From contig CAJINV010000006.1 in assembly GCA_905178155.1 (NCBI GenBank), positions 1,241,876 to 1,305,875 of the forward strand: 64,000 nt of DNA, written 5' to 3'. The stretch comes from Amoebophrya sp. A120 (lineage: Eukaryota > Protista > Dinoflagellata). Position 1 is the stretch's first letter. Every line of letters starts with the position of its first letter. A program made the position numbers and the translations under genes. The notes under the pieces are model-generated. The model was given only the letters and a program-made list of their open reading frames with translations, was not told where the DNA came from and searched no databases. Of this stretch, positions 27,701-56,900 are shown piece by piece.

Positions 27701-30700
27701 GCTACGTACGCGGGCACGGCGTTTGTCATGCGGAGTAGGTATCTATCAGGAACCCTTCTAAAACTAAAATTGTCTGATGCTGGGCCATTCATTGCAGGGA
27801 ACATCGGTCATGAGAGATATGCATGACAGATCTTGCATTCTTCCAGACCCAGACATTTTTGCAGCTGATAGAAGAACTTGCGCAAAAGGCTTGGAGTAAA
27901 AATCGAAGCAGCAAAAGCGCAGAGCAGCGCCGTGCCGATGCTTCAGCGTGTCTTCCGGATGAACACGGAAACTGCAATGGGAGGCATCATCTTCCCCCAG
28001 GAGTCAAAGTTGCGGGACTTGGCCTGGCAGAACAAGTCTGCAGTGGCGATGAGCTGTGTAAGGGGCAAGCTCAACTGCTTCGTTGAAAACTTCTGCGACG
28101 GCATCGAGACGCTGATGGCGAAGCGAACAAACTGGGCCCAGGTCGGGAGAATGTTTTGCGCGAAACTCGGCACCGAGATCGATCCGAAGTACGAGGACTG
28201 GAAGGAGGACATCAGAGAGTGCCAGGTCCAGTGCAAAATCCGAGGGTCACCGATCGAGGCGCTGGTGTTTCTGCATAAAAAAGACACTAGGCAACTGGAC
28301 CTCGGGCGGCCGGCCTTTCGACTTCTCAACGCGTGCGCGCTGGCCGAGTTTAGTACGGCGCAGAACGATATGGACTGCAAATGTGTCTGGTTCTGGATGA
28401 AGATTCTAACTAAAGCTGTGATGCTGTCTCTTGATCCGAAAAAAAAAAACTGTGTTGCATGACCAGCCAGGGCGCTGCAGTTTGTGCTACGCGGAGAGGG
28501 CATGTCTCATGTGGTAGAGGCATCGCAAAGCCTTCTCAAAATCTGTGATGCCAGGTCATGCATCACAGAGAGACATCAGGGGTCATGCAAAATATGCTTG
28601 CATGTTGACAAACCTTCCATTCTTCCAGACCCAGACATATTTGCATGTGATAAACAAAAGGGACCTCAAGCAACTTTACGAACAGAAGCAAAAGAACGCG
28701 GGGACGGTGAAAATGGTCGGGCGGCACAGTTTAGACCAAATTCTGAAACACGAACAGGCGGGAACGGAGGCAGAGTTCGCAGCTGCTTGCGCGTCCCTGT
28801 ATCTTTCCAACAGGTGCCGGGCGCCCTTCCAGAGGGAGAAGAACGCACACGAGCGGTCCGACAAGGGCGCGAAGCGGGGGCCGCAGGATGGAGATGAGCG
28901 CTTTGCAACGAAGGTGGGACTGAATGCGGCGGACGTCCGTGCAGCGGCGCGCGCGGCAGCACCCGAGCCCGTGAAGAAGAAGGCTCACGCGGGAGGAGGA
29001 GTGGGCGCGGACGCCTCCAAGCTCGTCCTGAACGAGGCCAACGACGACCTGAAGAACTCGGTTTTTGAAGGGCGGGAGGAGGAGATTATGCCCGCCGAAT
29101 ATCTCAAACACGAGACACCCGCAGCGACTGCGACATTCTCAAAAAAGCAGGTGTCGCTGCTGGAGCATGTGACGGCGCAGGGGAAGAAGAAGAACGGAAC
29201 TGGGGCGGGTGGCAGTGTGCCCACAGCAAATATGTCTCTCTGGGTCGTCTGCAGAGTAAGTTCGAACAGTGGCGTAAGTCTGTGAGTGAAGGGTGGTCGC
29301 GCTGCAATATAGAGGCAGGCACGACTGCAGTTGTGATGTGCTAGAAGCGGTGGCAGTGCCCTGCGCCTCCATTCGCATGGTATATTGCGTCTGCCCGTCA
29401 CAGATTTAAGTGAGGGTCATGCCAAACAAGCATGGCGGGCAGACTTCAAATCTTTCCAAGGCCAGACATATTTGTAATGCATACAGGAGTAGCAGCTCGA
29501 GCGCCAGTAGCAGTCTTGCCGCGAGCAAGCAAGCGGGAGGACGGGGGGTGGGCAGCGCAGGGAGCAGTAGCAGAGTCGCCGCCGGGGCTGGCCACGCCAT
29601 GAAGGAGACCTTGCTTGGAGAGTCGTCCGCAGCTGGGCCGACTGGTAGTTTGAAGATGAGCCTCGACCACGGCTTCATGAGCTCGACCGTTAGTAGCCGC
29701 CTAAAGCAGGCCAACAGCAGCAAGCCCAGCAGCTCAGTGTCTTCCTTGGGGAAGGCGGGCAGCGCTGCCACCTCGTCGTCGAAAGTGCTGCAGCCTCCGG
29801 CGCCTTATCAAATGCAAATGTGTCTCAATGGGTCTGGAAGGGTGGAATTTGTAATGCTGTCTGCGGATGATAAAAGTATCTGTGTCGCATGAGTAGCAAG
29901 ACCAGTCAGCTCTTGGCACGCGGAGAGGGCATTTGTCATGCGTAATTTATTAGCATCAAGAAGCGAAAAATCTGTGATGCTAGCACCAGCATCACAGACC
30001 TCACGGGTCATGCAAAATCTGCATGACAAGCCCCGACTCCTCCAGACCCAGACATATTGATATTTGCAGTTCATACGCCTTCGAAAAAACCTGCGGAAAG
30101 TACACTGCAGCCCGCGGCCTCTCACGCAGGCCGCCCCGTCGCGGCAAAGGGCAAAACCTCGGGGGGGCCCAGCTCTAGCTCTACGGCGAGATCGTCGGCG
30201 AACGTGAAAGAGGACTTTTTATCAAATGCAAAGACTTATCTATGTCTGGGTCTGGAAGAGTGCAGGAGTTTGCCATGCAGTTTCTTTTTGCATGACCTTG
30301 ACCCATGAGGTCTGGAATGCGGCATCTAGCATGACAGATTCTGCAACGTCTCTGCCATGCCTATCTTGCATGAGAGGTTCCTTCTCAACGAACTTGGTAA
30401 TCATGCAGCACAGATTTTTTGCATGATTCGAATTTAGCATGACAAGTTGCCATCTTCCAGACCCAGACATCTTTAAAGTGCATTCTTTTTCAAGATGAGC
30501 AATACGCTGAGCGCTGGCGGTACAATTGGATTGATAATTACAATAATGATACAAAGGGTGTGTTTGGGTGTATGTCGGTTTCTCTTTTGTCTGCTGGTGC
30601 TGGTGCGAAGATGAAATCTATTTTACAGATAGCGCCTCTGCGGGTAGTGTTGCAGTCAGATACGTGCAGCAAGATATATAACCCTCTGAATCAGGTCGCG

Positions 30701-33188
30701 GCGCGGAGGTTGCAGCCGCCGGCCACGTGACCGGAGGACCCACTGGCGGCGCCACAGCTGGCGGCGGTTCAAAAAAAAGGGCTAGGGTCGTAAGGAACGT
30801 GCAGGTCGACGGGAATAAGATTCGGCGGGTCGAGGAGTCCGAATCCGAAGAGGGCGACCGGGATGCTGATGGGAAGAAGTTCGGCTGAAGGGTGAGTGGT
30901 TGTGAGAAGGTCGCTCCGCTTCGAGGGGATTTTATAAATATAAATAAACGTAGTTGGAAGCAAAACTAAATCTGGTCTGAATGCCGATCCTATAGTGAGT
31001 TTTTATTTTCTGGGCCTTTTCCTATCTTCGTCTTGTTGAGATTTATATAGGGCCCAAAGTCAACATGACTCCACGCACTATTTTTTCAAGGTTCTAGCAC
31101 AAGCATTTTTTGAAAATCAACAAACAATTTGTAGTCGAGGCGCTAGCTCTGAAAGTCTCAGTGTGCAAAACCAGGCAAAGCCCTTGGTTTGTAGGTCTCT
31201 ACGTTTCTAAACAACAAGCGAACCCACTTTGCTGAAAGAAGCAGAATTTTCTCGAGCGCATCGGATGCTTGGGCGCTTTCAGAATTCCAGGCCAAAAACG
31301 ATGAGAAGTCAAACTAACAATATGAATATGAGTGAAGATTTGCGCGATGAGAAAGCAACATGAAGATTTGCGCTGCGGTGTTGGATTGTGGTCTTCCTTT
31401 TATTTTGTTTGGAATGGGCGCGATATTTTTGCAACGGGTGGGAGGGAGGTATCAAGTGCAAACTAATATGTCTGGGTCTCCTGGAAGAGAGCAAACGTTC
31501 GCCATGTGATTTCTGATGCTGCACGTGCACACAGGTCCTCTTTCATGCATGAAAAGCATTTAAGAGACTCGGTTGGTGTTTCCTAGTGCCTAGCCTGGGC
31601 GGCAAATGACCTCTCCTGGAGACAAAGACAGCACATGCAGAGCTGACAACGCATCACAGATTTCAGTCATTCCAGAATCCGCACCAAGTGCACAAATACA
31701 CTCTTCCAGGCTCGGACATATTAACTTTCGACGCATAATGGCACCCGCTCGGCGTGATGCTTACCGGTCTGCAGGGGGGCGACACAAAAGTTCATAGAGC
31801 ACAGGAAACATGCATGAAGTGCGCTCGTATCGTGCGCCGTTTTGTAGGAACATTTTTTATATTCATTCCAAAAAACAACACAGGTCCGCTTCCGGGTTCC
31901 GACACTCGACACCTTCCGGTCATTTTGCTCAAAATCCAGCAGTCATAATGTCATATTGTCATATTGTCATAATGCATATTGCTCAACGTGTCGAAATTTT
32001 GCTAGTTAATGTAATGTGCAAACAAAAAAAGACTTCTGATGCGCGACTTGCGTACACAAAGCCACCTGTCATGCTGGTGGAGAAGCGCTACTAGGGCTTG
32101 CCCGTGCCAGACAGCACTTTCTTCTGCGGTCCGCATCCGTTCCCTACCAGCATGACAACTCACAAATCACGCCACACAAATTCCACTTTGAGCTATGGGG
32201 ACGAGGGGGGATTTTTCATTTTGATAGCCAAAGCCTCGTCCTCTCACACCGGCGTCACTGTGGGCACCGAGCACGCGACGCTTTCTGCCGAAAAATGCGA
32301 GGCGGGCGAGATTCTGGCCTGCTGCGACACGCTCTGCGACGCGGCGAACCCTGAGCTGTTTAAGTCCGAAAATTTTGAAGCCGTGTGCAACCGGGACTGC
32401 GCGTACTGCTACAAGAAAGACGAAGCCCATTGCCACAGCCTGTACCCGTGGGCGCCGAAGTCCGAAACCGCTGCCTCGGCGGCCGCTGCCTCTTCCTTTA
32501 CGGAGCAGAAAAAAATGCAGAAGGAAGGCGTATCCAGAAGAAAAATCACTGCCCCAAACACTTCCCAGAAAAGTTCTTGTCATGCAAATCTACGTGCCGA
32601 AAATTATGTTTCTCATGCGCAGCTGGAGCCCCAACATGAGAGGCGCTTTCTCTTCGTGTTTTGCAATTTGTCATGCTTGAGTCAAACGATAAGCAGCTCA
32701 ATCTGTGATGCTGCTGCACCAGCTAGACACAACTACAGTAGGATCCCAATAAACTTGTCATGCGCATCAAGAGGCAAAAGTTGCTGATTTATTGTCTACA
32801 AGATTTTTTATCTTGGCAACCCCGGGATTGTGTCGTGGGCCCCCGTTTTTTCTCAGGATGAGGTTGCAGCGGTGAAACCAAAGCCTCGTCCTCTCACACC
32901 GGCGTCACTGTGGGCACCGAGCACGCGACGCTTTCTGCCGAAAAATGCGAGGCGGGCGAGATTCTGGCCTGCTGCAACACGCTCTGCGACGCGGCGAACC
33001 CTGAGCTGTTTAAGTCCGAAAATTTTGAAGCCGTGTGCAACCGGGACTGCGCGTACTGCTACAAGAAAGACGAAGCCCATTGCCACAGCCTGTACCCGTG
33101 GGCGCCGAAGTCCGAAACCGCTGCCTCGGCGGCCGCTGCGGCCGCTTCGTCCTTTGCGGAACAAAAATCCAGCTCCGTCATTCTCTAA
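15769..33188 (+). CDS. Probable secreted Pro-rich protein with PAN/Apple-like motif and two C-terminal Cys-rich repeats; one intron carries the 11-kb hAT element
   Basis: caaaaaATG, 45-nt GT-AG intron 15772-15816, hydrophobic N-terminus MVLATALLLGFF. Frame restored across introners at 15998, 17935, 18515, 19482, 19670, 19961. Exon 20814-20866 joins 32232 to give EQQKKEKEGCDGGPKASSSHTG, matching repeat 2 EQKKMQKEGCSGETKASSSHTG. The link across 20400-20813 is not resolved. Confidence 0.55.
15998..16285. mobile_element. Introner family F
   Basis: TATGAGAGTGCAC...TGCACTTTCATA; removal with 5 nt joins the 15817 and 16305 ORFs. Confidence 0.7.
17935..18198. mobile_element. Introner family E
   Basis: TATGGCGTTCTCAGCTGTTACAC...GTGTGACGCTTGAGAACTCCATA; DR GAAGG/GCAGG. 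Confidence 0.85.
18515..18763. mobile_element. Introner family E
   Basis: E-type TIRs; DR AAGGA/AAGGC; frame restored. Confidence 0.8.
19482..19623. mobile_element. Introner family B
   Basis: TATGCCTTGCAA...TTTTGCAAGGCATA; DR decayed; frame kept. Confidence 0.75.
19670..19893. mobile_element. Introner, minor family H
   Basis: TATGCCCAGAAAAAGCTGTCTCGGTCTCAA / TTGAGACTGATTCGGTTTTTTCTCGCGATA; DR AAACT/AGACT. Confidence 0.7.
19961..20259. mobile_element. Introner family E
   Basis: TATGGAGTTCTCAAACG...GTAACGCTTGAGAACTGCGTCATA; frame restored. Confidence 0.75.
20400..20460. mobile_element. Introner family B, left half only
   Basis: TATGCATTGCAAGAGTATCGTAC; no matching right TIR found. Confidence 0.55.
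20921..21034. repeat. Left subterminal CAATATGA/TCATATTG array of the hAT element
   Basis: Multiple 8-mers in both orientations. Confidence 0.75.
22793..30614 (+). CDS. hAT-family transposase (TTF-type zinc finger, DDE RNase H-like core, hATC dimerization region), ~1460 aa, split by 14 introners at 13 sites
   Basis: Spliced exons total 4392 nt in one frame. Motifs: WLEWS..GCSLCRKC..QKQHTGGQGH (ZnF), CLSADEKD (D1, 25263), LQFDGA (D2, 25452), LLCGAH (CxxH), HSRWN, FSTAQNER (E). The C-terminal end is less certain. Confidence 0.85.
23058..23336. mobile_element. Introner family A
   Basis: A TIRs; DR ATCCG/AGCCG. Confidence 0.85.
23673..23819. mobile_element. Introner family B
   Basis: B TIRs; DR GACCA/GGCCA. 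Confidence 0.88.
24045..24206. mobile_element. Introner family B (reverse orientation)
   Basis: TATCCTGTGCAAAAGTATCG...CTTTTGCAGTTCATA; DR GAAAG/GACAG. Confidence 0.88.
24429..24703. mobile_element. Introner family A
   Basis: A TIRs; DR CGTGG/CTTGA; frame restored. Confidence 0.85.
24998..25235. mobile_element. Introner family E
   Basis: E TIRs; DR AGAAT/AGAGT. Confidence 0.85.
25867..26036. mobile_element. Introner family B (CAT start variant)
   Basis: CATGAATTGCAAAAG...TTTTGCACAGGATA; frame restored. Confidence 0.75.
26135..26425. mobile_element. Introner family C
   Basis: TATCCTATTTAAAAACGTCCCCGC...GCGGGGACGTTTTTACTCAGGATA; DR CTACA/CTACA. Confidence 0.9.
26874..27134. mobile_element. 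Introner family A (first of stacked pair)
   Basis: A TIRs; DR TTATT/TTATT. Confidence 0.85.
27140..27296. mobile_element. Introner family B (second of stacked pair)
   Basis: B TIRs; DR TTATT/TTACT. Confidence 0.85.
27576..27870. mobile_element. Introner family A
   Basis: A TIRs; DR GAAGA/GAAGA. Confidence 0.88.
28369..28652. mobile_element. Introner family A, inside the putative catalytic Glu codon
   Basis: A TIRs; DR AACGA/AACAA; join gives STAQNER. Confidence 0.88.
29218..29483. mobile_element. Introner family A, degenerate
   Basis: Right TIR intact, left decayed; DR CAGTG/CAGGA. Confidence 0.65.
29806..30075. mobile_element. Introner family A
   Basis: DR CGCCT/CGCCT. Confidence 0.88.
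30220..30484. mobile_element. Introner family A
   Basis: DR CTTTT/CTTTT. Confidence 0.8.
31450..31737. mobile_element. Introner family A, degenerate, in the non-coding part of the hAT element
   Basis: TATCAAGTGCAAACTAATATGTCTGGGTC...; DR not matching. Confidence 0.6.
31942..31984. repeat. Right subterminal TCATATTG array of the hAT element
   Basis: GTCATAATGTCATATTGTCATATTGTCATAATGCATATTGCTC, near-identical to 20993-21034. Confidence 0.75.
32228..33165 (+). repeat. Near-identical ~280-bp tandem coding repeat (32228-32510, 32878-33165), Cys-rich domain
   Basis: KASSSHTGVTVGTEHATLSAEKCEAGEILACC(D/N)TLCDAANPELFKSENFEAVCNRDCAYCYKKDEAHCHSLYPW present twice. Confidence 0.9.
32531..32860. mobile_element. 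Introner family C-like
   Basis: TATCCAGAAGAAAAATC...TTTTTTCTCAGGATG; DR AGGCG/AGGTT. Confidence 0.8.
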
Positions 33189-35566
33189 GTGGTCGAGAAA
33201 CAAAACGGTGTTCTATTGCAGCAAACCTGCAGACTAGAAACGCCAGTCATGTTCTTACTATGAATTTATTTCGAAATCACTATCACCGCAACAAAGTAGA
33301 AGTACTAAGTAGCTAACTGTTTCAGATTCAGAAAAAAACCAAAATTTTGTTCACAAAAATCAGTATCTTCGCGTACTAGCACGACTATTCGTATTTTTTT
33401 AGAAATAATGCATTCTCATCGCCCGTGGCCTTTTTTCATGTACATTAATACTAAATTTTTCTCGAAATGAATTTCAGCGAGGACGAGGCGGAGGTGGAGC
33501 CAGTGTCCTTTATTAGACCGAAAGAGAACTACATCAAAACCACACCGACCGACATCATCTTGTTAACGTAAACTAAAGTAAAAAGTATATATTTTTTATC
33601 AGACGTATCCCGCAATAAACGCAAACGCCAGCAAGTGAACTTTATTCAGTAGTAAGTGTCCTCGTATTAATATTAAGCGTAACTATAGACCCAAGAAACA
33701 AGCGTATTTTATCACTATGTAATCTAGAATTTTCTCGCACGACGAACAGCGTATCTATTCCGGAAGACTATAAGTATGCAACACCAACAAGACTTTTCCA
33801 GCAATTGCAACTGTACTACTAGCATTATGCGTATCCCGCAGCCGCAGCAGAAGTAAAAGTAGAAGTCAAAGTACTAGAAAGTATCATCCCGCCGAAAATT
33901 TTTGCTAGTTGTAGTTTCTCTCAGCCATCAGTCGACGTCCTATGCTGCGTACCCCGCAGCAGAACTGGACGTCGAGTGATGGTCCTCAAATCCTCACTGG
34001 AAGATTGTCAGAAAGAGCCCAACAAGCCGAAGCCTTTGCCAGAAAGAACCATCGCTGAATGAAGATCATGTCGTGAAGATGAAGCTACAACAAGGCACCA
34101 AACTCGCGCTACTAGTACCATTTGTGCGATGTAGTTGTAGGTCGTATTTCTAGTCGTGTCAACATCGAAGAAGATGACAACAACAACACGAGGGAAGTAG
34201 ATGATCGTGATGTTAATTGTTGCACAATGCGCCGCATCAGAAAGTACCTTAATAACCTTTGCAGCTACTACGAGGACCACGACATCACTTCATCGAAAAC
34301 AAAGCTGGTGCTCAAGAAGAACTTCTGACTCCGAAGATCCTTATCTTCATCTTCCAACCCTACTAGTTTCACCACCATTAAGTATGAAAAAAAATTTTAC
34401 TTGTTGTCGGGCGGCCCCCTAGTGTGCTGTGTTAAAGCACCATGCGGTCATCGTCGGACCTTTCATCGGCTTCATCGCCGTAGAAGTGCTGACGATGAAG
34501 GAATTCATCTTCGTGTTCACGACAAAGACATCTTGTCAATAACGAAGATCAACGACCTCCACATGATGTAGTAGATGCACTGCGCGGAGGAGGAGCAGCC
34601 CACTGTGCTGGCATGAGTTCACCAGCATGAAGATGATCCGCGGGAGCTCTGCGCACGAGGACCACGTCGGTTCTATTTCGTCTCGTGCCAAGAGATGTAG
34701 AGGTTGAAAAGTGTTGTCGTGCAAGACCTATAGTACCTACCTCCAGGACGACGACGATGATATTCTTTACAACCATCACTACTTTCACGGGACAGGATCT
34801 ACTTCTTCATCTCAACTACACAAAAAACGATCGGAGCAACCCAGTTTTGTGAGATGAGTGTGAAGACCACTCGGGATCTCTGACTGCTTGTCATGTTGTG
34901 CATGTGGAAAAGATCATACCTCCCGGGGAACCACGAAGAGACGGGAGAACAAAGGGTTGTCCTCGTGTAGTTGGGTCTAAGCGGCCACTAATACTAGAGC
35001 GATTGCATTCCTGTAGTTTTGCCCAAGTGTGTGTTGGTGGTCCAAATTCGAAAGCCATGTTGCCGTTTCTGACGCGAGGGCTTGCAACCGCGACCCTGCC
35101 CCTCTCCACCATCTCTCATTTACAACAGGAAGGTCGTAGTTCTTGGGAGGAGCAGCTTCAGATTGTTGGCGACAGCACTTCTTCTTTTGGACTGCACGAT
35201 AGCAGCTTACAGTTGACAACACAGCAGCCATTGCTTGCACGCGGAGGAGGTCGAGGAGAAGCAGAAGGAACAATACTAAAACCAACCGCTTCCCCCTCAT
35301 CATCCTTTCTCTCCGACTACACTAGCGGCAGCCATGATCCTCGTGAAGGCCCCTTCCTTCGCCCCTAAGGCCCCTGGTGTCATGCCGATGCCCGAGATCA
35401 TGATCATGGAAATAAAATTCTCTCCGAACAAGCACGGCAAACCACTTTCTGCTCGCTGCAGGGCCAGTTTCCCTGCAAGCCGGAGGGAAACTACTGCAAC
35501 ATCTCGTGTGAAACGTACGAGGCCTCCTTCGCTCCCAACACTACGCATACCTGCGCGTGCCAGGAT

Positions 35567-35814
35567 TTATCTGGGTCGGGACGATTGCCCGACTTGTCAT
35601 GCATATTTTACATGACCCGTGACGCCTGTAATGCATAGCCTAACATCATAGCCTTTTAGAGGGCTTCCTGATGCTTATTCCGCATGAGAAATGCCCTCTC
35701 CGCGTAACACGAGCTGGAGTCCTCTTGCTAGTCATGCACTACACATTTTTTTGGAATCCAAAGACAGCATCACAAGTTACCACCTTCCAGACCCAGACAT
35801 ATTTGCAATGCATA
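35567..35814. mobile_element. Introner family A, left end lost
   Basis: Right TIR intact. Confidence 0.65.
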
Positions 35815-35891
35815 GACGCATACCTGCGCGAAGTGCTTCGCCACCGGGCGTGCCAGGATTTCCAGGATGCGAAGTGCTTCGCCACCGGGTG

Positions 35892-36144
35892 TGTGCATTG
35901 CAAATATGTCTGGGTCTGGAAAGCTGGAACTTGTAATGCTGGCCTTACATTCCTGTGAAATCTGTATTGCATGACCAACAAAAGTCGCAGCCATTTTTGT
36001 CGCGCAAGAACGCACTTTCTCATGCGGGCTGCCTCTGAGAAAGAGTCCTGGAAAGTTGTCTGGCTGGGCTGCATTCGGAAGTTTTTCCATGATCCACATT
36101 TTAGCATCACAAGTTTCAAGACCCAGACATATTTGCATTTGATA
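35892..36144. mobile_element. Introner family A
   Basis: DR GGGTG/GGGTG. Confidence 0.88.
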
Positions 36145-36321
36145 GGGTGCGTCGAATGTCCCGAGGCGTGCCTGGAAAAATTTCACCTGCAGGACAAGCG
36201 GACCATCCTCGGAACGAAGCTTTTCTGTTGCGCGGAAGCGCTGAGCCGAAAGCAGTGCGACCCTTGCTGCAGTCACGAACACGGGGAGGCGGACTGGAGG
36301 GCCAATCGCTCCCTGCCGGAT

Positions 36322-41000: not shown

Positions 41001-44000
41001 CTTGGAAATTTGTCATGTGCCGCCCAGAAGTGGCGCTTCGACTGGAGTGGTGTTTTGCATTACAAACTATTTCCACTTTGTGGATTTCCAATCTGAGGCT
41101 TTCATACGGTCACGAAATTGCTTGATTCCTTCAAAGCAAAGCACGAGAAACAAGTCAAGGTCGCGGCATATCCTGTGCAAAAGTATCGTACTCGTAGTAA
41201 TCGCAGTCATGCATTACAAATCTTCATCCCAAGGTAAACGTAAAACAGCATGACAAATTCCATTTGTCATGCTAAGCTAATTTGTCATGCGATTACTATA
41301 TATTATATTCATGCGAAAAAAGAGGTAGACAGAGGGCAAACAAGAGGTGGTCGAGAGGTCAAAAAGAGGTCAAAAGAGGTAAAAAAGAGGTCGACAGAGG
41401 TGGAGAGGTGGCGCGGGACCCCTTTCGAGAGGGTCGGCGAGAGGGTGCGCGAGTATAGCCCGCCGAAGGACCCACCTTAAGGCGGCGCCTAAGTGCCTCA
41501 GAGGGTGCAGAGAGGTCAAAAAGAGGGGGCGCGAGAGGTCGACAGAGGTCGAGAGAGGTGGCGCGAATAAGGGCCAACCTCTCGCGCACCCTCTCGGCCA
41601 CCTCTGGGCCACCTCTGTCGACCTCTACCCGCGAGTATAGCCGGACTATTAGCGGGGACCCCCCAAAAGAGGTAAAAGAGAGGGCCTGCGGGGGGTCTGC
41701 GAGAGGGTAAAGACACAAAGTGGAGGGCGCGAATCCGCATGGTATTCCCCATGTGTAGCATTGCAGGCCCTTCGCGGACTTGTTTTGTTCGGCGCCTGCC
41801 CCCACCACCCTCTCGCGCCACCCTCTCGCGCCGCCCTCTCGCGCCACCCTCTCGCGTCACCCTCTCGCGCCACCCTCTCGCGCACCCTCTCGCGCCACCC
41901 TCTCGCGCTACCCTCTCGCGCCGCCCTCCCTCACTGAAGTCATTGAAAAAGTGGCGCCGGGGAATGGGGCGGGGTCGGTTCTTGGTTCACCTTGATTAAC
42001 GAAAGGCATGCGTAGCGGACTGTGGTGTGGCATCTAGGTGCCTCCTGTTCATCTGCCCCAATGCTCGTGGTAGCTCCTCCCTGCGCAGAGCGCCCTTAGG
42101 CGCGGGAAGCGCGCAGACGGTGCTGCGGGGGCATAAGTATGCATGTCGCTGTGGTCCGGTCCGCAAGCAGTTCAAACCCGGCCAAACAGCCTTGCGCTCC
42201 GGCGGTAGCCGGAGCATGGCTGGTTTATACTAGTACGATACTTTTGCAGTTCATACGGCAGAACAGCTGGCGAAACTGCAGGTGAATAAAGTAGACTAGA
42301 GCTCTTTGATGTTTTTTCGTCGGAATTGCTAAGCACAACTTCTTTTCAAAATTTTGTTCTTGTCACATGCAGAGAAACAAAGACCTAAACCGCGTGAAAG
42401 AACTGTGGAGCAAGCTTGTAAAAAAAAATCCGAAAATCTTTATACGAATAAATTCTATCAGGCGATGGAAGAGAACCTCGAGAAGCTGACCGGCAAGATA
42501 CGGCTGCTGGAGCAGGAGAAGCGGTCTTTGGAAATTTCCCTGAAGGACGAGGTGTCAAGAAGGAAGGACGCGGAGTACGGGCTGGAAAGGACGCAGGAAG
42601 AGTTGACCAGAAAAGTGGAAGAGTTCCAGGACCTATGAACTGCAAAAGTATCGTACTCGTATAAATGCATTACAAATTGACTTAGCATTACAAATTGAAT
42701 TTGTAATGCGGATTTGCCTTGAAGCAAAAATTTGTAATGCATAAACGCAATTAGTACGAGTGCGATACTTTTGCACAGGATAGGACCTGTCAGACCGTTT
42801 CGACGAACTCACCGCGAAGGCAAATCAGCTGCAGAAAGATTTTATGAATTGCAAATATCAATCTAGGTCTGGATTTGTGATGCGAAATTTGAAGGACAGC
42901 GAGGATTTGTGGTGCATAAATACGATTGCAGGCTTTTTTGTCATGCTGTGAAACTGAGTTTGTCATGCAAGAAAACTACACGTCGGTAGAACTTTTAATA
43001 CTACCCGAAAAATTTGTGATGCGTGGATGCCGTGCAGAAGATTGCTCTGTTATCCAACAGTCAGCAACACAAACTCACTGCGTCTTTCCGGACCCAGATG
43101 GATATTTGCGTTTGATAGATTTGCTGCAGACGCAGAAGGACCTCCAGACGGAGAAGGAGGAGCGGGCACTGGAGAAGCAGGACATGGACAAGGCCATGAA
43201 AAAACTGACAAAAAAGTACAACAAACTGCAACAGGAATACGACGAATTCGAGAAAGAAACGACGGCAAAACTGTCCGATCTCACCTCCAAGGTCTCCTAC
43301 CTGGTAAACGAGAACGAAACTCTATCCTGAGTAAAAACGCCCCCGCCCCAGAGTTGTCATGCAGATTTGCAATGGCAAGAACAACATTTGTGATGCGCAT
43401 CCCCACGATACGCATTCCCAATCGTGTTTCGGAATTTTTAATGCCGTCAACAGGATGGGTAGCTCGATTTGTAATGCGGCTGTCCTTGCTAACCTGCACT
43501 ACACTACAGAGCGCAACTTGTCATGCGTCGCTCCCAAAAGCCCCATCTTGACTCTGGGGTGGGAATGGAGATCTTCCTCAGCATAAACGCTGTCCAAGCG
43601 GGTGAAGCATCTAGAATGGGAAGTGCAGGACACGATACGGCAGTGGCACGAGATATGGATGTGTCAGGATCGAAATCGTCAGAGTTGAAGTAATTTGTGA
43701 TGCATGAAACGGATACCAGTTGGCGCCTAGTTTTCAAGTGGCGCATGAGAAATTTGGGTAGAACTGAAATCCAGTTTGTAATGCTGTTTGAGTAGGAAGA
43801 CGCCTTTTGTCATGATACTTCAGCAGCTCAATTTCTACCCGTACCCCTCAACAGGCTTACAATCTGCATCCCTTGCGTCCTCTGCAATAGAGGCAATTTT
43901 TGTGTTGCACTTTTTGCATCACAAACTATTTCAACTATGACGATTTCGATCCTGACGCTTCCATACGAGAATGTGGCGCAGGTGAAAAAAGAGGCGGCGG

Positions 44001-46985: not shown

Positions 46986-48410
46986 AGACACACTGGCCCC
47001 GGCTTTCTGGGAGCGGGTCTCAACGCAGTTAGGTTGGCCAGCAGCTAGCTAGCTACCGCGCGCGCCCCTCAGCGCTCGCAAGCACCAGGCGCAACGGCGC
47101 AACCCTGAGGCGCAGGTGGCGCGTCAGAGCACGCGGCCACTGCAGCAATAGGGACGCACGCCAAGCGCAGGCGCTGACGGCACGAAGGGCCGCGACTGCC
47201 GAGAACCAACAAGAGGAAGCCGGGAGCTGCCGTAGTTCTTCGCCCGCATGGCCGGACTGCTGTGTGTGGTGGCACCGGCTTAGCCGGGGGACCCGCTATA
47301 TCTAGTAGCTTGTATTCGCTATGTCTTCCGCATCGCGCGGGCCTTGTGAGGAATGTAAGCCCAGGCGGGAGAGCATTGCGGCGCCCCTCCCCTTCTGCCT
47401 AAGATGCTGGGCAGACGAGGAGGGCGCAAAGCATCCGCGGAAGCGCAGGATGCCCCCCGGCCGCATCACCTACAGGCTAGTAGCTTATGGCCGATGTGTG
47501 CCGGCACTTCGCGGCAAAATCGAGCAACACGGCGCTAGCAGCGAGAATCGCCTTGATGTGGCCGTCAGGAACAAGGAATAGAGATTGCCGGAGCGTTTAA
47601 GCACGCCCGCCCCCCTTGGGGTCGCATAGGCTCCTCCCGGCTCCGATGTTCACCTCTTGCGCTGTTCGCCGGGCCTAGCCAGATCCATCGCGGACACAGA
47701 GGGTAGCCTCGCACCCTTGCTCGTCCGTACAAATCGTTTGGGTGGATCGCTTTCCCGGTGTCACGATCAAAAATCGAGCGGCACGTACCCCAGACACAGG
47801 GCAAAGTGCATCGTGTATAGTATATAGTATTAGGTACATCAGAACTTGTCGTGCTAAAAACTCGTCGTGCGCAAACAAGTTTATTTCGGTTTCTATTTTA
47901 GTATTAGTAGTCGTGCATATGCTACGGACGTAACCTAGGACCGTCGTCCATTTACAATTATCGGTTCTGGTTGCCCTTTTCGTATTGTCGTGCGTTGTCG
48001 TCGTCCTCTTGTGTTGGTAACATTTGAAGCGGAGGCACTCGCACTCTGTCGGAACTGTTCTTCAATCGTTGTCAGTATCGTCTCACGACGTTCGGTTGCG
48101 TTGTCTTGCTTCCGGCCGCCTGTGGCTGGCTCTACTCGTAGTTTCCATCGTAACTACAAAGAAAACGACGACACAGAACCTATTCATCAGTTCCCATGAA
48201 GGTAGCCCCTTTTGTTTTCAATTTCTCTTACATCTCGTTATATTTAGAAATGCAAGGACTTATTTTACTTGGTCCTGATTCACCCGCGGGCCCGCCTTCA
48301 CAAGTGTTTTGCGCGACGACGTTTACGTTTGTTTACTAACCTTCCAAGGAACCCGAACTTTAGAAAAAAGAAAAACACGAAAAGCTACTTACTTACTGTG
48401 GTCATTCAAA

Positions 48411-51400
48411 ATGAGTCAACAACTCGAAGACCCGACGGCCCGGAAGTCGAAGAAATCGGACCGGAAATCCGGGAAAAAATCCGAGAGCAAGAAATCGGAG
48501 ACCAAGAAATCCGATATGAGACTGCACAACTCCCCATCCCCCTCATTTGTGATGCAAAATTCCAAATCCGCCCTTTGCCTGTTAGCACTGTTTGCATGAC
48601 AGCTTCCGGAGTTTTCCAAAACAGCACTACAATCCTCTACTAGGAATTTGCCATGCACAAGCTGCATCTTTATACCATCGCTTGTGTTGCTGTTCATGCA
48701 ACACAAATGAGGGGGAGGGGGGGTTGTGAACTCTCATATCCGAGATCAAAAGCGCAGTAGATGAGGTTGTCGAGATCCTGGCCGACGAGGGGCAGAAGGT
48801 GCCGTCTAGTCATATGACCTGCTCAAACGTTGCAATCTCAAACGTTACAGTAGAGTCTGGATTTTGTCTTGCATGCTGAGCATGACAGAATCGCTGAGCG
48901 TTCTACTTTCTGCAATACAAATTTCGGCAGGTAATTCTAGTGCGGTGTGGGGCTCCGAAGCTTGTCATGCGCAATTCTGTGAGAGCAGGTTTGCGCATGC
49001 ACTTCTTGCACCACAGATTTCCGTATTCTCTTGTAACGCTTGAGATTGTAACACCTGAGCAGGTTATAAGTCAGGGCACTGTAGACACCAGCCACATCGG
49101 TGGCCTCGGTGGCGCACCCCCCGTAGTCGCCGTGAGTCATGCCACGCCACATCACTACAAAAACAAAGCCGCCGTCGGCTACGGGGCGGGGGTTGCGTCT
49201 GGTTCTCTACCGCACTACCACAGGACGACGCAAAATCAGCACGAGAGCGGCGCTGGTAGTACAAGTGGCGCCGCAGTCACGTTGCAGCCTCCTGCAGCCG
49301 TGTCTTCGGTTGTATCTCCATCCCCCCCTGAGATGCTGAACGGCACACCGTACCAGGCACCAGCGCCGTTTGTGCCTCCGTCGACCACGCCTGTGGCGAG
49401 AGACGAACCTGGTGATGGCGAGGACCGCGGCTTTGGTTTGGGAAAATTGCTCGGGGGGACTGGTTTGAATATGGGGGGAGGGGGAGGGCAGTACGGCGGA
49501 GGGCAGTATGGGGCCGGACAATACGGCGCTCCCGGCATGATGGGAGGCCAGACCCAAGGTCACCATGGAGGAGCAGGAGGCGGTGGTGCAAGTGGCGGTA
49601 TCATGGGATTTTTCAGCAAATTGGGCCTCGGAGGAGGGGATAGTAACAAGCCCCCGAACCCGTATGCGAACATGGTGCCGCCGGGGACAATATGCATTGC
49701 AAATATGTCTGGGTCTGGAAGAGTGCAAACTTGTCATGCAGGTTTTATATGACCCATGAGGTCTGGAATGCAGGATCCACCATGACAGATGCTGTGAGAT
49801 CCGTATCGTGTCTATCCTGCATGAGAAACTCCCTATCGACCTGGTCAAAAGTGGACAACTACTTTTGGTGATCATGCAACACAGATTTTTGCATGATTCA
49901 GATTTGGCATGACAAGTTGCCATGTTCCAGACCCAGACAAATTTGCATTCGATAGACAGCGCCGGGGCAGTACGGCGGACCAGCACCGTATGGAGGTCAG
50001 CAGCCCTACAATCCATACGCAAACATGGCTCCGCCCGGAACGACGATGCCACAATATGGCCAACAACCCCCGCAACCCGGGCCGTACGGAGGTCAACAGC
50101 CACCGGCGGGAGCGTACGGGGGCTATCCGCCGGGTTACGGAGGTGGACCACCTGGAACTGGTCCGCCCCCGGGGTACGGAGCACCACCGCCGCCGGGATA
50201 TGGTGCGCCAGCAGGTTCACCTGCTGCGTTACCCGGTTACGGCGGACCCATGATGCAGCAGTCGCAAGCGGGAGCAGGAGCAGGTAATTCTCCTGCAAAT
50301 ACTAATGCGGCACAACAGTTGCCGCTGGCACCAGCCCCGCCCGGGACTGAAATTTCAAACACAGGAACTGCTGCACCGGTTACAGGAGCTAATACTACTT
50401 CTGCCGCCTCCATGGCCGCGGTCGGACTCGCGGGCGCGGCGGCTGGCGCTGTTGTCGCCGGGGCGGTGATGCAACAAGATATGCAGCAGCAGCAGCAGGT
50501 ACACCCTCCCGGACAACAGCAACAGGTGTTCAACTACGGTTCCTTCCCGGTGACGCAAGGCGCTGTTTTGAACCCTCCGCCCCAACAAAGCCTGGACATC
50601 TTCGGACCGGAGTTCACGATCAAACAGAAGGTGACGAAGCGAGACCTCTTGGAGAACACATTGGGCGTCGAAATGGGTAACTTCTACAACGTCCAGCCCT
50701 TTGGCCATTCCGGTGACAAAAACAGCGAACTTCCCTGGAAAATGTACGTTGATGAAAAATCTGACAACTGGTGCGGAAGGATTTGCTGCGGCCCGACGAG
50801 AGGTTTAACATTTGACGTTTTTTACCCGAAAAAGGAGAAAGACGGGGGCATGAAAATTTTGGAACTGAACAAACCCTTTATCTGCTGCGAACCCTGTTGC
50901 GCGTGCTGCTGCTGTTTCTGCACGGGGTTCTGCAAGCCGAAGTTCACGGTGACGGCGACGGAACATTTTCCGGGGAACACGACGGGGGGTAAGTACGAGA
51001 TCGGGTATGTTCAGGATCATTGTCAATTATGCGGAACGCGGGAGGAGATCCATAAAATCCGTTCTGCGAATGATTCTGGCAGTACAAAAAGTGGGTGCTG
51101 CGGCGATTCGAAATACACCCACTTGTACACGATCAAGGGTACGTGCTGCCAGCTGGGCGCCTGCCTCCCCGCCGGGGGGAGCGCGAAGTATCCGATTTAC
51201 AAGGGGGATAACAACAAGGAGAAGGTCGGTATGTTTACGAAGATGGGGAAGGGGGTGATGCAATTTGTCCAGGAGCTCCTGGCCGACGCGCAGACCTTCA
51301 AAGTGACCTGCCCGCCGGATGCGAGAGCGGAGGAGAAAGCGCTGTTGTTATGCCATTCTCAACTGTTACATTCTCAACTGTAGTTACGCGGATTTGTCAT

Positions 51401-52827
51401 GCAAAATTGCCATCAGCCTCCACTTGATCAAGGTGCTTGGCATGACAAATTTTGGAAAGGCTAAGCAGCACGATAATCTGTGGCAAATCTGTGATGCGAA
51501 AGCTGCAATATTGCCGCATTCACTGTTGCTGTTCTTGCATTACAAATCCAGGACGACTAGGATTCGGATCTTTTTCAATTTCCCAAATCAAGCCACAGCG
51601 AAACTTCGCGAAGAGATCAGAAGGTAAAGAAAAAGAACACCGAGCTGACGCCGCGATCTCCAAAGAAGAGCAAATGACAGAAAAGAGAGGGACGTAGTGT
51701 AGGAAGGGTCGTGGATCAGTAGCACTGAGATCAAGCGAAAAGAAAAAACAAAGGAAAAAGAACGACGAAAAGACCAAGAAAGACTTCTTCACTTCATTCA
51801 TTGCGCAGGGATTTTGAACGACTAATGGTGCTCAAAGATATCACGGTAGACCATGTCATATTGCGCACGACATAGCCCACGAATTCCGAGAATTGAAGTG
51901 ATGAGCAATATGATTTACGAACCCGATTGTTGACAGCTCTCGTAATAGTCAGACTGAAAATCATGCGCGAAAAGGAAAGGAAAAAGAAGAAGCACAAACT
52001 CAAGGACACGACGCAAGATGTTCTATAAAAGAGGGAGAGAGATGACTTAGGGGTGGCGATTTGAAGTGTGTTGTTGATTGTTCCCACGGGAATGCCGTTT
52101 TACGGTGAAGACGATCAATTTGTATGTGAAAGACCCTCGTGAAATTGCATTACAAATCCATGTAACAGCTGAGAATGTAACGGTTGAGAGCGCCATAGTT
52201 GTTGGCCGCGGGGCTCATGGTGGATCTCCAGTACTACGAACAGACCAACGACAAACCGGAGGAAATGGTATGCGTTGTAAATATGTCTGGGTCTGGAACA
52301 GTGCAACTTGTGATGCTACAATTGGATCCTAAAAAAAATCTGTATTGCATGAGCAGCAAGAGCAGTCAAATTTGGCTACGCGCATCGGGCATTTGTCATG
52401 CAGAACGCGCATCGATAAGCGCTCAGAAAATCTGTGTTGCTAGGGCGGCATACATAGCAGACATCGTGGATGTGGATCATGGAAAATGTGCATGACAAAC
52501 TTGTCTTCTTTCAGACCCAGACATATTTGCAGTTGATAAATGGAAGGGTATGGAAACATGATTGGGGGGCTCTTTTACCCCGACAAAGCTTCCTCCAGTG
52601 CGTCGAGCGAGGCGGGATGTTCTTCGGCAGTAGAAAACCAAAGCCAAGGTACTGGGGCTGTAAGTGGCTTCGAGGACGAGAGTGGCGCAAAGGGCGCAGT
52701 AGAGGAGATAAGTAGTACGGGCGCTTCTAGTAATTTCGCTGGAGAAGCACAGAGTGGCGGACGGTATCGGGCTGGTGCGTCGAAGCTGAAGGAAAAAGCA
52801 GGCGGCACTGACTCTGCCGAGTTGTAG
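48411..52827 (+). CDS. Phospholipid scramblase (PLSCR)-family protein with long Gly/Pro-rich N-terminus, ~842 aa, 5 introners
   Basis: PPPGY repeats, Cys-rich CCEPCCACCCCFC, C-terminal LADAQTFKVTCPPDARAEEKALLLAAGLMVDLQYYE resembling the PLSCR C-terminal helix; spliced length 2529 nt. Confidence 0.82.
48515..48738. mobile_element. Introner family F
   Basis: DR TCCGA/TCCGA. Confidence 0.9.
48813..49068. mobile_element. Introner family E-like
   Basis: TATGACCTGCTCAAACGTTGCAATCTCAA / TTGAGATTGTAACACCTGAGCAGGTTATA; DR AGTCA/AGTCA. Confidence 0.88.
49691..49954. mobile_element. Introner family A
   Basis: DR GACAA/GACAG. Confidence 0.9.
51349..52197. mobile_element. Introner family E carrying a 594-bp nested insertion
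   Basis: DR GTTGT/GTTGT; the paralog has an empty site. Confidence 0.88.
51551..52144. mobile_element. Nested insertion with 16-bp target duplication
   Basis: TTGCATTACAAATCCA at 51535-51550 and 52145-52160. Confidence 0.7.
52269..52538. mobile_element. Introner family A
   Basis: DR AATGG/AATGG. Confidence 0.9.
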
Positions 52828-53908
52828 ATGAAAGTACGAATTTACAGATGCAAACACGTAAATTGAAGAAAGGCCACTTGAAATTGTTCGTAAAAATTAT
52901 TTCACCTTCAAAAATAGGCACAACCGTGGTTGTTCTCGTTTTTATCATCCACATCCTTTGATTGCTAAATTTCATTTTCGTGATTTTGAATGTTCACCGT
53001 GTCGACAGTGCGATTTACAGTTTCGAAACCAAAATCTAAACCCTATACATTACACTTTTTCAGAAGTTTGATCCTTGCCCACCTAGAATGAATAGTTCGA
53101 AGTGCTGCCGCGTTTGTCATGAAAAAATTAGAAATATGATTCCCCCGGTAGCGGTAAGTATGTAATACCTACCAGAATGAGCCAACAGTTCTTTTATCTG
53201 ATCCAAGTCTTGCTTTTGATTTTTTTCCAGTGCAATGCTATCATGCCGTAGTTCCCACAGATGACACGGACAACTATGAGCTCGTCGGCGTTCTGTGAAC
53301 AAACCGAGGTCGTCGAATCAGATTTGACGCAGGAATCGACTGATATCGGTTACGGTTTCGGTTGTACGTGTATACCTTGTGCCAGCTTTATCTACGAAGG
53401 AGCTGCTTCGGTCTGATAATCGTGCCCGTCCTACTCTTCTCGTCCATGATGCTTGTGCTTCGTTTGGTTTATTTTCTTTCGTTGATTTTTCGTTTCCCCA
53501 GTCGCGCGGAGGTCCTACTTTATGCGTTTTATTAGAGCTGCTGCCAGAAGTTGTTGTAGGGACAGTTCTAGGTGCCAGCATTGCCAGACCCCGTTTTCGT
53601 CCCTTCGTCTCAACATTCCGCTCGTTGTTCCCCCACTTGTTGCAGGACCCAAATACCATTTTTTTGTCGAGAAACAGCGCAAGGAGATTGTATAAGTAGT
53701 TCGTTATGCCCGGTGGACTTGTTTGAAGCATATCAGAAGGAGTATCCCTTTTTCTGTTCTATTAACACCACCGAGTACGAGCAAACACAATTACTTTAGA
53801 ACGCGCACACAGCGAAAATAGGCAGTCCGAATTCAGAAACAAAGAAACACCACTACGTGTAAAAACCCCTCTTGCACCCAAGAGCAGCATATCGACCGTG
53901 AACAAATT

Positions 53909-56900
53909 ATGGCAGCACCACCACCCCCGGGCTACGGCGCGCCACCCCCGGGTTACGGCGCGCCACCACCCGGCTACGGGCAGCCACCACCACCTGGCTA
54001 CGGCCAGCAACTCCCTGTCGCTTACGGGCAGGTGATGCAGCCACCGCAACAGGTCATGTCGGATGATATTTTCGGGCCCCAATTTAACATCAAACAGAAG
54101 GTGACGAAAAGGGACCTCCTGGAGAACACATTGGGCGTCGAAATGGGAAATTTCTACAACGTCCAACCGTTTGGGGAGAAGGGAAACAAGAACAGCGAAC
54201 TTCCCTGGAAAATGTACGTAGACGAGAAATCATATGGAAGCGTCAGGTTTGAAATCCTCAAAGTTGAAATAGTTTGTGATGCATAAAATGCAACCCACAA
54301 AATGCCTGTCTTGCAGAGTAGGCAAGGGAGGCAGATTGTAAGCCTGTTGAGGGGTACAAATAGAGCTGCTGGACTAGCATGACAAAAGGCCTCTTCCTTA
54401 CCCAAACAGCATTACAAACTGGATTTCGGCTCTACCAAATTTGTCATGCGCCACTTGAAAACTAGGCACCAGCTGGTATCCGTTTTATGCATGGCAAACT
54501 ATTTCAACTTTGACGATTTCAAACCTGACGCATCCATAAATCAGATAACTGGTGCGGAAGGATCTGTTGCGGGCCGACGAGTATCAAATGCCAATATGTC
54601 TGGCTCTGGATGAATGCAGATGTTTGTGATGCAGGTTTTGCATGACCCAGAGTGTCTGGCATGCAGGACCAGCATCACAGGTTCATCTTCGAGAGCTTCA
54701 CGATGCCTACTCTGCATGAGAAATCCGCTTGGCACAACTTTTGTTCTTCAGGCAAGACAGATTTTTGTGTGATCTGAAATGCGCATCACAAGTTGCAACC
54801 TTCCAGACCCAGACATATTTGCAATGCATAACGAGAGGCCTCACCTTCGACGTTTTCTACCCGAAAAAGGAATCGGAAGGCGGGATGAAAATTTTGGAAC
54901 TGAAAAAACCCTTCATCTATCAAATGCAAATATGCCTGGGTCTGGAAGAATGCAACTTGTGATGCTGCGTTTGGATTCCAAAAAAATCTGTATTGCATGA
55001 GCAGCAAAGGGAATGCAATTTTTGCTATGCGGCGAGCGCATTTGTCATGCGGACTAGGCATCAAGAAGCCCTTGTAAAAAATTTGTGATGCTGGGGCATG
55101 CATCACTGACATCGTGGCTCATGCAAAACGTGCATGACAAGTTTCAGAATCTTCCAGCCCGAGACATATTTGCAATGCATATCATCTGCTGCGAACCGTG
55201 CTGCGCGTGCTGTTGCTGTTTCTGCACGGGTATCAAATGGAAAAATGTTTGGGTCTGGAAGGTTGGAACTTGTGATGCTACCTCTGGACTCTGAAAAAAT
55301 CTGTATTGCATGACTAGCAAAAGGAGTCTAGTTTGTGCTACGCGGGGAGGGCATTTGTCATGCGGAGTAGGCATCAGGAAGCCCTCTAAAAATCTGTGAT
55401 GCTAGGTCGTGCATTACAGACATCCTGGGCCATGCAAAATATGCATGACAAACCCGGCAACATCCCAGACCCAGACTACACTTTTGCAATTCATAACGGG
55501 GTGTTGCAAGCCGAAATTCGAGGTCACCGCCACGGAGAATTTTCCGGGGAATAAACGAATATGCATTGCACAAGTATCGTACTTCTAGTAGGGATTCTTG
55601 CATTACAGATTTAGTCAGCATGACAAATGAAATTTCTCATGCTAATTTGGCTCAGGAAGGAGGTTTGTCATGCAGTATCGCAATTACTACGAGAACGAGT
55701 GCGATATTTTTGCAATGCATAACGTGGCGAGGCCTACAAAATCGGCTACGTGCAAGATCACTGTCAGGTGTGCGGGACCCGGGAGGAGATCCACAAAACC
55801 TCCGATGGGGGTGAAAAGCACTTGTACACGATCAAAGGCAGCTGTTGCCATATGAGAGTGCGTTACAACTCCCCCTCGTTCGCATTTCTCATGCAAAATC
55901 CCAACTCCAATTGTTCCCCTGCGTCACTATTATGCATGACAGATTCCGGAAGCTCAAACGGTACTACACGAGGCGCATGAATTTGTAATGCACAGGCTCC
56001 ACGTGTGGTGGTGTTTGTATGGCTGTTCATGCAATACAAATGCGGGGGAGGGGGGGTTGTGCACTCTCATATGCCAGTGCGGTGCCTGTTTGCCAGCCGG
56101 GGGGTCGGCTTCGTTATGAACTGCGAAAGTATCGTACTCGTGTAAATGCATTACAAATTTCCTCCGCGTGAGAAATAAAATTTGTAATGCAGATTTACGA
56201 TAAGAAAAAAATTTGTAATGCAAGACTTGCATTTATACGAGTACGATACTTTTGCAGTGGATATTCGTACCCCATTTACGACGGGGAACACCACGACCGC
56301 GAAATTGGGGAGTTCAAAAAGATGGGTGGTATGCACTGCAAAAGTATGGCACTAGTAGAAATCGCATGACAATTTTCCTCAGCGTGAGAAATGGAATTTG
56401 TAATGGTGCGGGTTTGTCATAAGAACGGAATTTGTAATGCATGACTGCGATTACTACGAGCACGATACTTTTGCAGTGGATAACCGGCGGCATTAAGCAG
56501 TTCGCGATGGAGTTGCTCGCCGACGCGCAAACCTTTCAAGTCACATGTCCCGACAACGCTCACAACGAAGAAAAGGCGTTGCTACTGGCGGCGGGATTGA
56601 TGGTGGATCTGCAGTACTACGAGCAGACAAACGACAAACCGGATGAGTTGGGCGGCTACGCAGACATGGTATGCATTGCAAAAGTATCGTACTTAGTAGG
56701 AATCGCATTACAAATTGGCTCAGCATGACAAGTAGAATTTGTCATGCTGATTTACCTCGGAAAAAAATTTGTTATGCATGACAGCAATTGCTACGAACAG
56801 TACGATACTTTTGCATTTCATACATGGTCTTTTACAACGAAAAATCTTCCATTCGGTCGTCTAGCAGCAGCGCATCCGGCGCATCCGACTACTCCCTCCG

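Follow-up and report, generated by a model that had tools for sequence, protein, structure and literature searches.

Introner elements of the dinoflagellate Amoebophrya sp. A120 have already been published (Farhat et al. 2021, PMC7789003). In the accessible parts of that report (the same scope applies to the other sources cited here), their inverted repeats begin with TAT, seven looser bases and AAA, direct repeats of 3-5 nt flank them, and the intron ends are non-canonical. More than 60% of the A120 introns were called non-canonical, with no clear terminal signature and with splice sites 'variable' relative to the hairpin; a share of ~65% is also given, with seemingly arbitrary ends. The nine top A120 intron classes of its Table S4 are all NT-NN, hinting at an N+TAT offset at the 5' end. 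U1 was not found in A120, U11, U12, U4atac and U6atac were reported absent, and U2, U4, U5, U6 and 83 of 89 spliceosomal proteins were reported to be retained. For 19 of 58 A120 families, a 2025 introner dataset (PMC12130899) gives mixed duplication lengths (2-5) and mixed co-option calls, with no single rule. Here we analysed a window of 64,000 nt of this genome (assembly GCA_905178155.1, contig CAJINV010000006.1, positions 1,241,876 to 1,305,875, forward strand), 0.49 of which consists of such elements. The host is A120: three exon queries matched the annotated A120 proteins P0001, P0002 and P0005 at 99-100% identity. Whereas the published borders are variable or unknown, one register fitted all 38 informative junctions of the window, including old introns without a recognisable repeat. 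This fixed register is the new part; it was not found stated in the accessible A120 introner literature, and figures 3 and S19-S23 of PMC7789003 may depict it. It makes testable the question of how non-canonical A120 introns are removed without a detectable U1.

The nonconventional introns of Euglena, N3-CDG...CH'G-N5-6|R (Nomura et al. 2025, PMC12501133), likewise have a MITE-like (miniature inverted-repeat transposable element) origin and a terminal stem. They share with the A120 elements self-complementary triplets at fixed spacers, a longer 3' spacer and free terminal bases, and their register was likewise found from junctions that cannot slide. The triplets are TAT/ATA in A120 versus CAG/CTG in Euglena, and the spacers 1 and 4 versus 3 and 5-6. 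We did not find the euglenid CDG...CHG at +4..+6 and -8..-6 in the window elements, which carry TAT at +2..+4 and ATA at -7..-5; a euglenid-like terminal stem with fixed spacers and free termini was present. Unlike Euglena, A120 has no distinct purine rule at exon +1 (purine in 52/80, like repeat position 2), and single triplet changes, which kill splicing in Euglena (PMC12501133), are in some cases tolerated in A120. The lineages are unrelated, and the A120 rule likely shows convergence with Euglena.

In Polarella class 14 and Florenciella introners (bioRxiv 2020.10.14.339549, PMC9860276, PMC12130899) both cuts likewise lie within the duplicated target, of which a single copy remains. Polarella class 14 requires an AGGH target that supplies GH and AG (bioRxiv 2020.10.14.339549), whereas any target serves in A120. 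Introns of Fritillaria borealis (PMC13326754) are likewise transposon-derived, 95% of them being non-GT/AG with a conserved U2 spliceosome; their termini are biased (AG/AC, AG/AT, terminal YAY) and U1 is kept, whereas the A120 termini are free and U1 is reported missing. In Yarrowia, Trichomonas and Giardia (PMC2483917) the 3' cut likewise follows an upstream motif at a short, constant distance, but these organisms keep ACTAAC and AG; in A120 the motif is ATA and AG is not needed.

A fixed splice register

The window elements begin with TAT and end with ATA, have imperfect terminal inverted repeats (TIRs) and are flanked by 5-bp direct repeats. Across 80 elements they match the published A120 traits (an inverted repeat starting with TAT, about seven looser bases, a run of A, short direct repeats). 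Five families were found within the window, and removal from mRNA was seen at 17 contig joints. A gene for a small secreted-looking protein occurs in three tandem copies with duplicated flanks (58767-59160, 60408-61084 and 62336-62960), and of these the middle one alone carries an introner within its coding part.

60531..60803, + strand: element with AAACA on either side; the empty site, where AAACA occurs once, is found in two tandem paralogs.

The element interrupts the copy at 60408, with AAACA on both sides of it, whereas AAACA is single in the copies at 58767 and 62336, so the insertion produced a 5-bp target-site duplication, where 3-5 nt had been reported (PMC7789003).

We denote by k how many bases of the left repeat are retained, so that k=4 means 4 nt from the left and 1 nt from the right. 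Although removal of the elements restores long reading frames, reading-frame continuity cannot fix k, because every k removes the element plus 5 nt. We therefore used contig joints over two stretches, 17500-33400 and 49450-56620, from the sets X1 and X2 (presumed RNA-derived, same sample) and X7 (DNA-like); for the first stretch 15 of 348 joints were listed. The initial annotation, made from the letters alone, had proposed the 4+1 register from four diverged repeat pairs, and these are present at 28369-28652, 32531-32860, 55560-55721 and 56330-56482. The second of these elements, with repeats AGGCG/AGGTT, ends in ATG instead of the ATA that had been supposed. At window position 32860 one X7 contig has A, which would restore ATA and may represent an allele, another copy or an assembly error. 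The introns at these sites and at two further exact contig joints are:

28368..28656, + strand: intron with k=4, element 28369-28652 (AACGA/AACAA), ends AT..CA; P0001 gives k=4-5 with Glu kept, and an X1 piece runs from 28657.
32530..32864, + strand: intron, element 32531-32860, ends GT..GT; X1 gives k=4 exactly, with EGC in a Cys-rich two-repeat protein.
55559..55725, + strand: intron of scramblase paralog B, element 55560-55721, ends AT..GT; X1 and X2 give k=4 exactly.
56329..56486, + strand: intron with k=4, element 56330-56482, ends GT..CG; X1 and X2 give k=3-5.
19481..19627, + strand: intron, element 19482-19623 (GGAAC/GGCGG), ends CT..CG; contig gives k=4 exactly, and the split in P0005 is unique.
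19960..20263, + strand: intron, element 19961-20259 (TGGCT/CGCGG), ends TT..CG; contig gives k=4 exactly and P0005 k=4-5.

Among the joints listed for 17500-33400, at least six were X1 exon joints. Three of them (19480>19628, 19959>20264 and 32529>32865) have no slack and give k=4 exactly, 17931>18201 and 19666>19896 give k=2-5, and 20862>32228, at a depth of 264.6, gives k=1-5. In 49450-56620, X1 and X2 gave 11 element joints among 12 rows: 55558>55726 is without slack and fixes k=4, 56327>56486 has 2 bases of slack (k=3-5), 49685>49955 gives k=0-4, and the eight others lie at perfect repeats. Altogether 9 of the 17 contig joints are informative; k=4 fits all 9, k=3 fits 5 and k=5 fits 4. From the contigs, the cut position is thus exact for 32531, 55560, 19482 and 19961 and confined to a range for five other sites. 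No bases were inserted at the joints, as judged from the coordinates of X1 record 2 (17500-33400) and record 5 (49450-56620). There was no contig joint at 28369 among those listed, and the X1 piece that starts at 28657 gives k>=4 there. The joints 52299>55077 (X1/X2) and 26967>28481 (X1/X7) were dropped as they join the insides of related elements, from copies elsewhere. No reads of the raw-read RNA runs X11 and X12 aligned on 17500-33400, X4 provided one uninformative joint and X5 one contig, and no independent study backs the junctions.

Annotated proteins were used as an additional source. The A120 gene models derive from transcript alignments, so that residues report junctions, perhaps from the same RNA as X1. 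We enumerated every nucleotide split compatible with P0001, P0002 and P0005. Of 44 in-window protein junctions, 41 can be read as N+TAT-like...ATA-like+4; the other three are two GT-AG introns and a 9-nt gap. All 33 informative protein junctions fit k=4, with unique compatible splits at 862, 3348, 19482 and 29218, and the four junctions tested by both protein and contig agree. Further introns and spans that bear on the register are:

49690..49958, + strand: intron with k=4, element 49691-49954 (GACAA/GACAG); X1 and X2 give k=0-4, and the AG-ending k=5 is not used.
17934..18202, + strand: intron with k=4, element 17935-18198 (GAAGG/GCAGG), the sole GT..AG of 80; contig gives k=2-5.
19669..19897, + strand: intron with k=4, element 19670-19893 (AAACT/AGACT); contig and protein give k=2-5.
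29217..29487, + strand: intron with variant 5' motif TGC (CAGTG/CAGGA), ends GT..GG; unique split in P0001, and an X1 piece ends at 29216.
3347..3789, + strand: old intron with decayed repeat TACTG/CATCC, ends GT..TC; unique protein-compatible split in P0002.
861..1203, + strand: old intron with variant 5' motif TAC (ambiguous assignment, alternative TAT at 859), ends TT..AG; unique split in P0002.
18..10944, + strand: span of 22 in-window P0002 introns, all register-compatible; repeat identity <=2/5 in 12.
23057..30488, + strand: span of 13 TAT-type P0001 introns (14 elements, one twin), all register-compatible.
20866..32230, + strand: 11,365-nt intron with k=4, element 20867-32226 (CCCAA/GCCAA), swollen by a nested transposon; X1 joint gives k=1-5.

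The residue arguments of the initial annotation held in direction and were weaker at single sites than had been claimed. At 28369 the Glu is kept in P0001 (k=4-5), but the protein alone bounds only k>=4. At 32531 the joint without slack gives EGC, as in the sister repeat at 20844, and at 55560 (ACGAA/ACGTG) the contig joint is exact, the protein alone giving only k<=4 in both cases. At 56330 (GGTGG/ACCGG) the left bases do give the Gly of the paralog, but positions 1-2 suffice, so that only k>=2 follows. These four protein bounds meet at k=4. Contigs and annotated proteins showed neither the Lys at 28369 nor the Gly at 32531 that would have spoken for another junction, and a single register wherever they could tell.

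When contig and protein junctions were combined, 38 of 54 were informative. All 38 fit an intron of N+TAT...ATA+4 nt, as had been predicted, and seven give k=4 alone; the numbers compatible with k=0 to k=5 are 3, 4, 13, 25, 38 and 21, so that the next-best register, k=3, fits 25 of 38. In 11 tested junctions the motifs are variant and their placement leans partly on the register; once these are left out, all 30 informative junctions that remain, in which TAT and ATA are exact, fit k=4. Under a model in which k is drawn randomly from 0-5 at each site, the product of compatible fractions puts the chance of k=4 everywhere at ~1e-4 for the 9 contig joints, ~1e-15 for the 38 junctions and ~1e-11 for the 30 exact-motif junctions. 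At 14 junctions, including the contig joints at 49691, 32531 and 19482, the data exclude a register that would end in AG within the repeat, in line with the earlier suggestion that the 3' end is set by distance; GT-starting registers are excluded at 8.

The register holds in both element orientations, in old introns without a repeat and across the 11.4-kb intron. In the largest family, copies in opposite orientation (23058 versus 24429 and 28369) exclude the mirrored k=1, so the 4+1 asymmetry belongs to the transcript and not to the element. For the main isoform we regard the register as almost certainly true within the window and very probably so genome-wide. In the latter case the apparent diversity of intron ends would reduce to a single code read in a sliding frame, exact borders could be given for tens of thousands of introns, the bases to test would be +2..+5, -7..-5 and the two spacers, and the position of a branch point or circle junction would be predicted.

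Three further arrangements were observed. A flush 4-bp repeat, CGCA, flanks the element at 15998-16285, yet annotation and frame require removal of the element plus 5 nt with k=3-4, so distance beats repeat alignment there. Twin elements at 8522-9063 and at 26874-27296 have a single repeat copy in the middle, and the annotation removes both members of each pair together. Finally, no right partner was found for a left element end at 20400-20460; the main contig continues across it and it supplies the end of the P0005 reading frame, which is consistent with both ends being needed.

Conserved bases and the terminal stem

Base counts were taken over 80 elements, 54 of them tested and 26 paired by TIR with k=4 assumed. 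The first intron base is free, as had been proposed (A26 C10 G24 T20), and is followed by T79/C1 at +2, A77/G3 at +3 and T74/C5/A1 at +4; +5 is G in 44 and C in 31, +6 is never T (C in 28) and +7 is mostly A. At the 3' side, A79, T80 and A78 occupy -7, -6 and -5. The last two bases fall into 15 classes, with AG in 5/80 and GT-AG in 1/80. The canonical U2 termini (GT/GC at +1,+2 and AG at -2,-1) are therefore not those of the elements, in which +1 is G in 24/80. We saw no drift of +1 toward G, the intronic base being G in 6 of 19 position-5 mismatches. Conservation of each repeat position had been suggested as a check on the register; mismatches were flat (13, 20, 19, 19 and 19 of 80) and did not discriminate, as is to be expected when each position is exonic in one of its two copies and intronic in the other.

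Sixteen introns have a repeat identity of <=2/5. In these old introns TAT is kept in 13 and ATA in 15, and TIR positions 4-25 match only at 10.7/22. TAT and ATA thus outlast the rest of the TIR, and selection appears to maintain both the triplets and their offsets once mobility is lost. For none of 12 variant ends has the opposite end undergone a Watson-Crick change that restores pairing: 4 form G-U pairs and 8 are unpaired, and for 7 of the 8 that break pairing a transcript-derived junction shows that the intron is still removed. The two ends of an old intron pair more strongly with each other than with those of other introns (-18.8 versus -9.6 kcal/mol; permutation p=0.0002), and G-U is more frequent than A-C among the mismatches of the stem (135 versus 84; 42 versus 18 in old introns). 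The predicted stem is weak at TIR positions 4-7, with an in-register probability of 0.34-0.44, and has an internal loop between the triplet and the main stem. Since positions 4-7 pair poorly, the ends seem to be read as sequence.

Candidate machinery

The elements create a 5-bp duplication and are removed with 5 nt at offsets 1 and 4, with free bases at +1, -2 and -1. Exactly one copy of the repeat stays behind whatever the 5-bp target and whichever the orientation, so that an insertion leaves the mRNA unchanged; this would account for the saturation of genes with these elements, for which neither the target nor the orientation matters. Removal is likely carried out by a loosened major spliceosome that would read both motifs at fixed offsets with the help of the terminal stem (probability about 0.55). 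N-U-A-U-(G/C) would then serve as the donor, keeping +2U, a +3 purine and often +5G for U6/U5 and no longer requiring +1G or U1. An A of AUA would be the branch point, with the cut at a fixed distance downstream, and the terminal stem would replace U1/U2AF in pairing the intron ends. Yeast has the donor GUAUGU, and in Yarrowia and Trichomonas the branch A of ACTAAC lies at -6 and -8 by our own count. Branch-anchored 3' ends are known in both (PMC2483917). In favour of this reading, the 5' variation looks donor-like at +2/+3, the variant ends are uncompensated, and U2, U4, U5, U6 and most spliceosomal proteins are reported to be retained. The TIR of the sister strain A25 starts with TTA-R-R, and its top annotated intron classes are TT-NN without exception (PMC7789003); to judge from this annotation, A25 ends would also place T at +2 and A at +3 in spite of a different TIR.

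Several points weigh against a spliceosomal reading or against the register on which it builds. Free bases at +1, -2 and -1 together exceed any spliceosomal intron class found in the literature, an Rfam search of the window returned no small nuclear RNA (snRNA), and the match to U6 and U2 pairing is weak (+5 C in 31/80, -9 T in only 29/80). TAT and ATA are predicted to be paired together ~60% of the time, which would hide them, and they double as transposon ends. Shared ancestry or strand-biased mutation could contribute to the own-end pairing and the G-U excess. All modelled genes lie on the + strand, so that the register is that of + strand genes; the contigs come from one study and drop rare isoforms, and the annotation may rest on the same RNA. 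The Euglena introns, of the same architecture, are thought by their authors to use non-spliceosomal factors (PMC12501133). A general +4U shift through loss of SNRNP27K was considered and rejected, as the GT introns of the window (two in annotated proteins, others viewed by eye) carry A or C at +4.

Removal outside the spliceosome, as proposed for Euglena, is the main rival, possible but doubtful. A protein nuclease/ligase would bind the stem at its TAT:ATA end, make its cuts 1 nt upstream of TAT and 4 nt downstream of ATA and join the exons, the likeness to GTATG being a coincidence. The design is that of the tested code N3-CDG...CHG-N5-6, with its self-complementary triplets, fixed spacers, longer 3' spacer and free termini (PMC12501133), and U1 was not found in A120 (PMC7789003). 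Own-end pairing is kept in old introns with G-U in excess, neither AG nor G at +1 is preferred, and the 11.4-kb intron is still removed in register. However, 8 of the 12 variant ends break triplet pairing, and 7 of those 8 are demonstrably removed, none breaking the register; an internal loop parts the triplet from the main stem; and +2/+3 vary as in GT/GC and A/G donors, with +2T/+3A apparently shared by A25 despite its different TIR. Also, we know of no nuclease/ligase of this kind, which counts against it.

Tentatively, and with more doubt than confidence, one may go further and see a second code, N1-TAT...ATA-N4, without terminal dinucleotides or U1, read by machinery convergent with that of Euglena, which would measure from the end of the stem and may be non-spliceosomal. 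Any TIR transposon that makes a 5-bp duplication would thus be a perfect intron at any site and in either orientation, and the transcribed transposase-like gene nested at 20904-32018 would possibly belong to the mover family. Should the register hold genome-wide, the introns would represent either the most terminal-base-blind spliceosomal class found in the literature or a second independent origin of a Euglena-type ruler code.

A minor (U12-type) spliceosome or its remnants, reading NTATC as RTATCC and setting the 3' end by distance, is very improbable. U12 introns tolerate varied termini, and +2 to +5 are TATC in about a third of the elements. However, the RTATCCTT donor was not found, +5 being more often G than C and +6 C in 28/80 and never T. 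The U12-like donor suggested by the initial annotation is not supported either, given the reported absence of U11, U12, U4atac and U6atac (PMC7789003), which leaves a putative likeness to a major-type donor.

An artefact, through reverse-transcriptase jumps across hairpins at short repeats or through aligner or annotation bias, is harder still to credit. Strong hairpins with flanking repeats are a classic substrate for such jumps, X1 and X2 are presumed to be RNA, from one sample, and the annotation is alignment-based. However, the offset is fixed even where no repeat is left, removal restores long frames, the exact sites without slack carry CT..CG, TT..CG, GT..GT and AT..GT ends, which aligners do not favour, and template jumps would yield mixed registers.

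The least credible explanation is that DNA itself contains the joined forms, through precise excision or as empty alleles, or that a transposase writes an orientation-tied 4+1 asymmetry. It draws on the comparison of the DNA-like run over 17500-33400 but not 49450-56620 and on tested genes that are all on the + strand. It is largely refuted: X7 lacks the six X1 exon joints among the joints listed and runs unbroken across 18650-20932, and copies in both orientations (23058 versus 24429 and 28369) exclude the mirrored k=1.

The nested transposon and neighbouring features

The longest intron contains a separate transposon with its own gene:

20904..32018, + strand: nested TIR transposon with P0001; 23-nt inverted repeats and a flanking 6-bp repeat, CAAACA.

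P0001 is an intact spliced gene of 1421 aa inside this transposon, which is nested in the introner, and a loose contig end at 20903 suggests another transposon copy elsewhere. Judged by sequence, P0001 is a possible hAT-like transposase. Its motif order (DDE, CxxH, W) fits by eye what we take to be the hAT pattern, and its Atlas look-alikes, at 0.80-0.89 and thus below the 0.9 bar, are mostly of the hAT clan where a family is named. The Glu at 28369, which the initial annotation took to be catalytic, may be so and is a lead only. Pfam, a PDB sequence search and Foldseek gave no match for P0001 (the model was poor, with a predicted local distance difference test score, pLDDT, of 37), and a representative search gave two weak matches of low-complexity type to PKD/Ig proteins. 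The element has TIRs and its flanking repeat is 6 bp, versus the 8-bp duplication of hAT; hAT subgroups with 5-6-bp duplications exist. The TIRs of the nested transposon differ from those of the introners, so P0001 need not be the introner mover. The A120 paper reported no transposase in this strain (PMC7789003). P0001 omits 9 nt at 23839-23847, a short palindrome (TTTTGAAAA) that is in frame in the window; this may be an annotation gap, an assembly difference or a micro-intron.

P0002 (3-11135) and P0005 (15437-20528) look to be diverged paralogs and share an acidic stretch whose last residues are FVAWHFRS. A weak PAN match was obtained for P0002, which may be an annotation fusion of several genes. 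Inverted repeats that begin with TATTTT are nested in the intergenic stretch 12860-13524, without a 5-bp repeat, and represent a different element type.

Tandem scramblase paralogs lie at 48411-52830, to which Pfam PF03803 was assigned, and at 53910-57460; they carry 5 and 10 introners, respectively, modelled at different sites. Introners enlarged by nested inserts were found at 7379-7871, 41169-42255 and 51349-52197. The insert at 7574-7850 is an element itself, 41300-42200 contains GA- and CT-rich repeats, and 51320-52149 is covered by X1 contigs at a depth of ~21.

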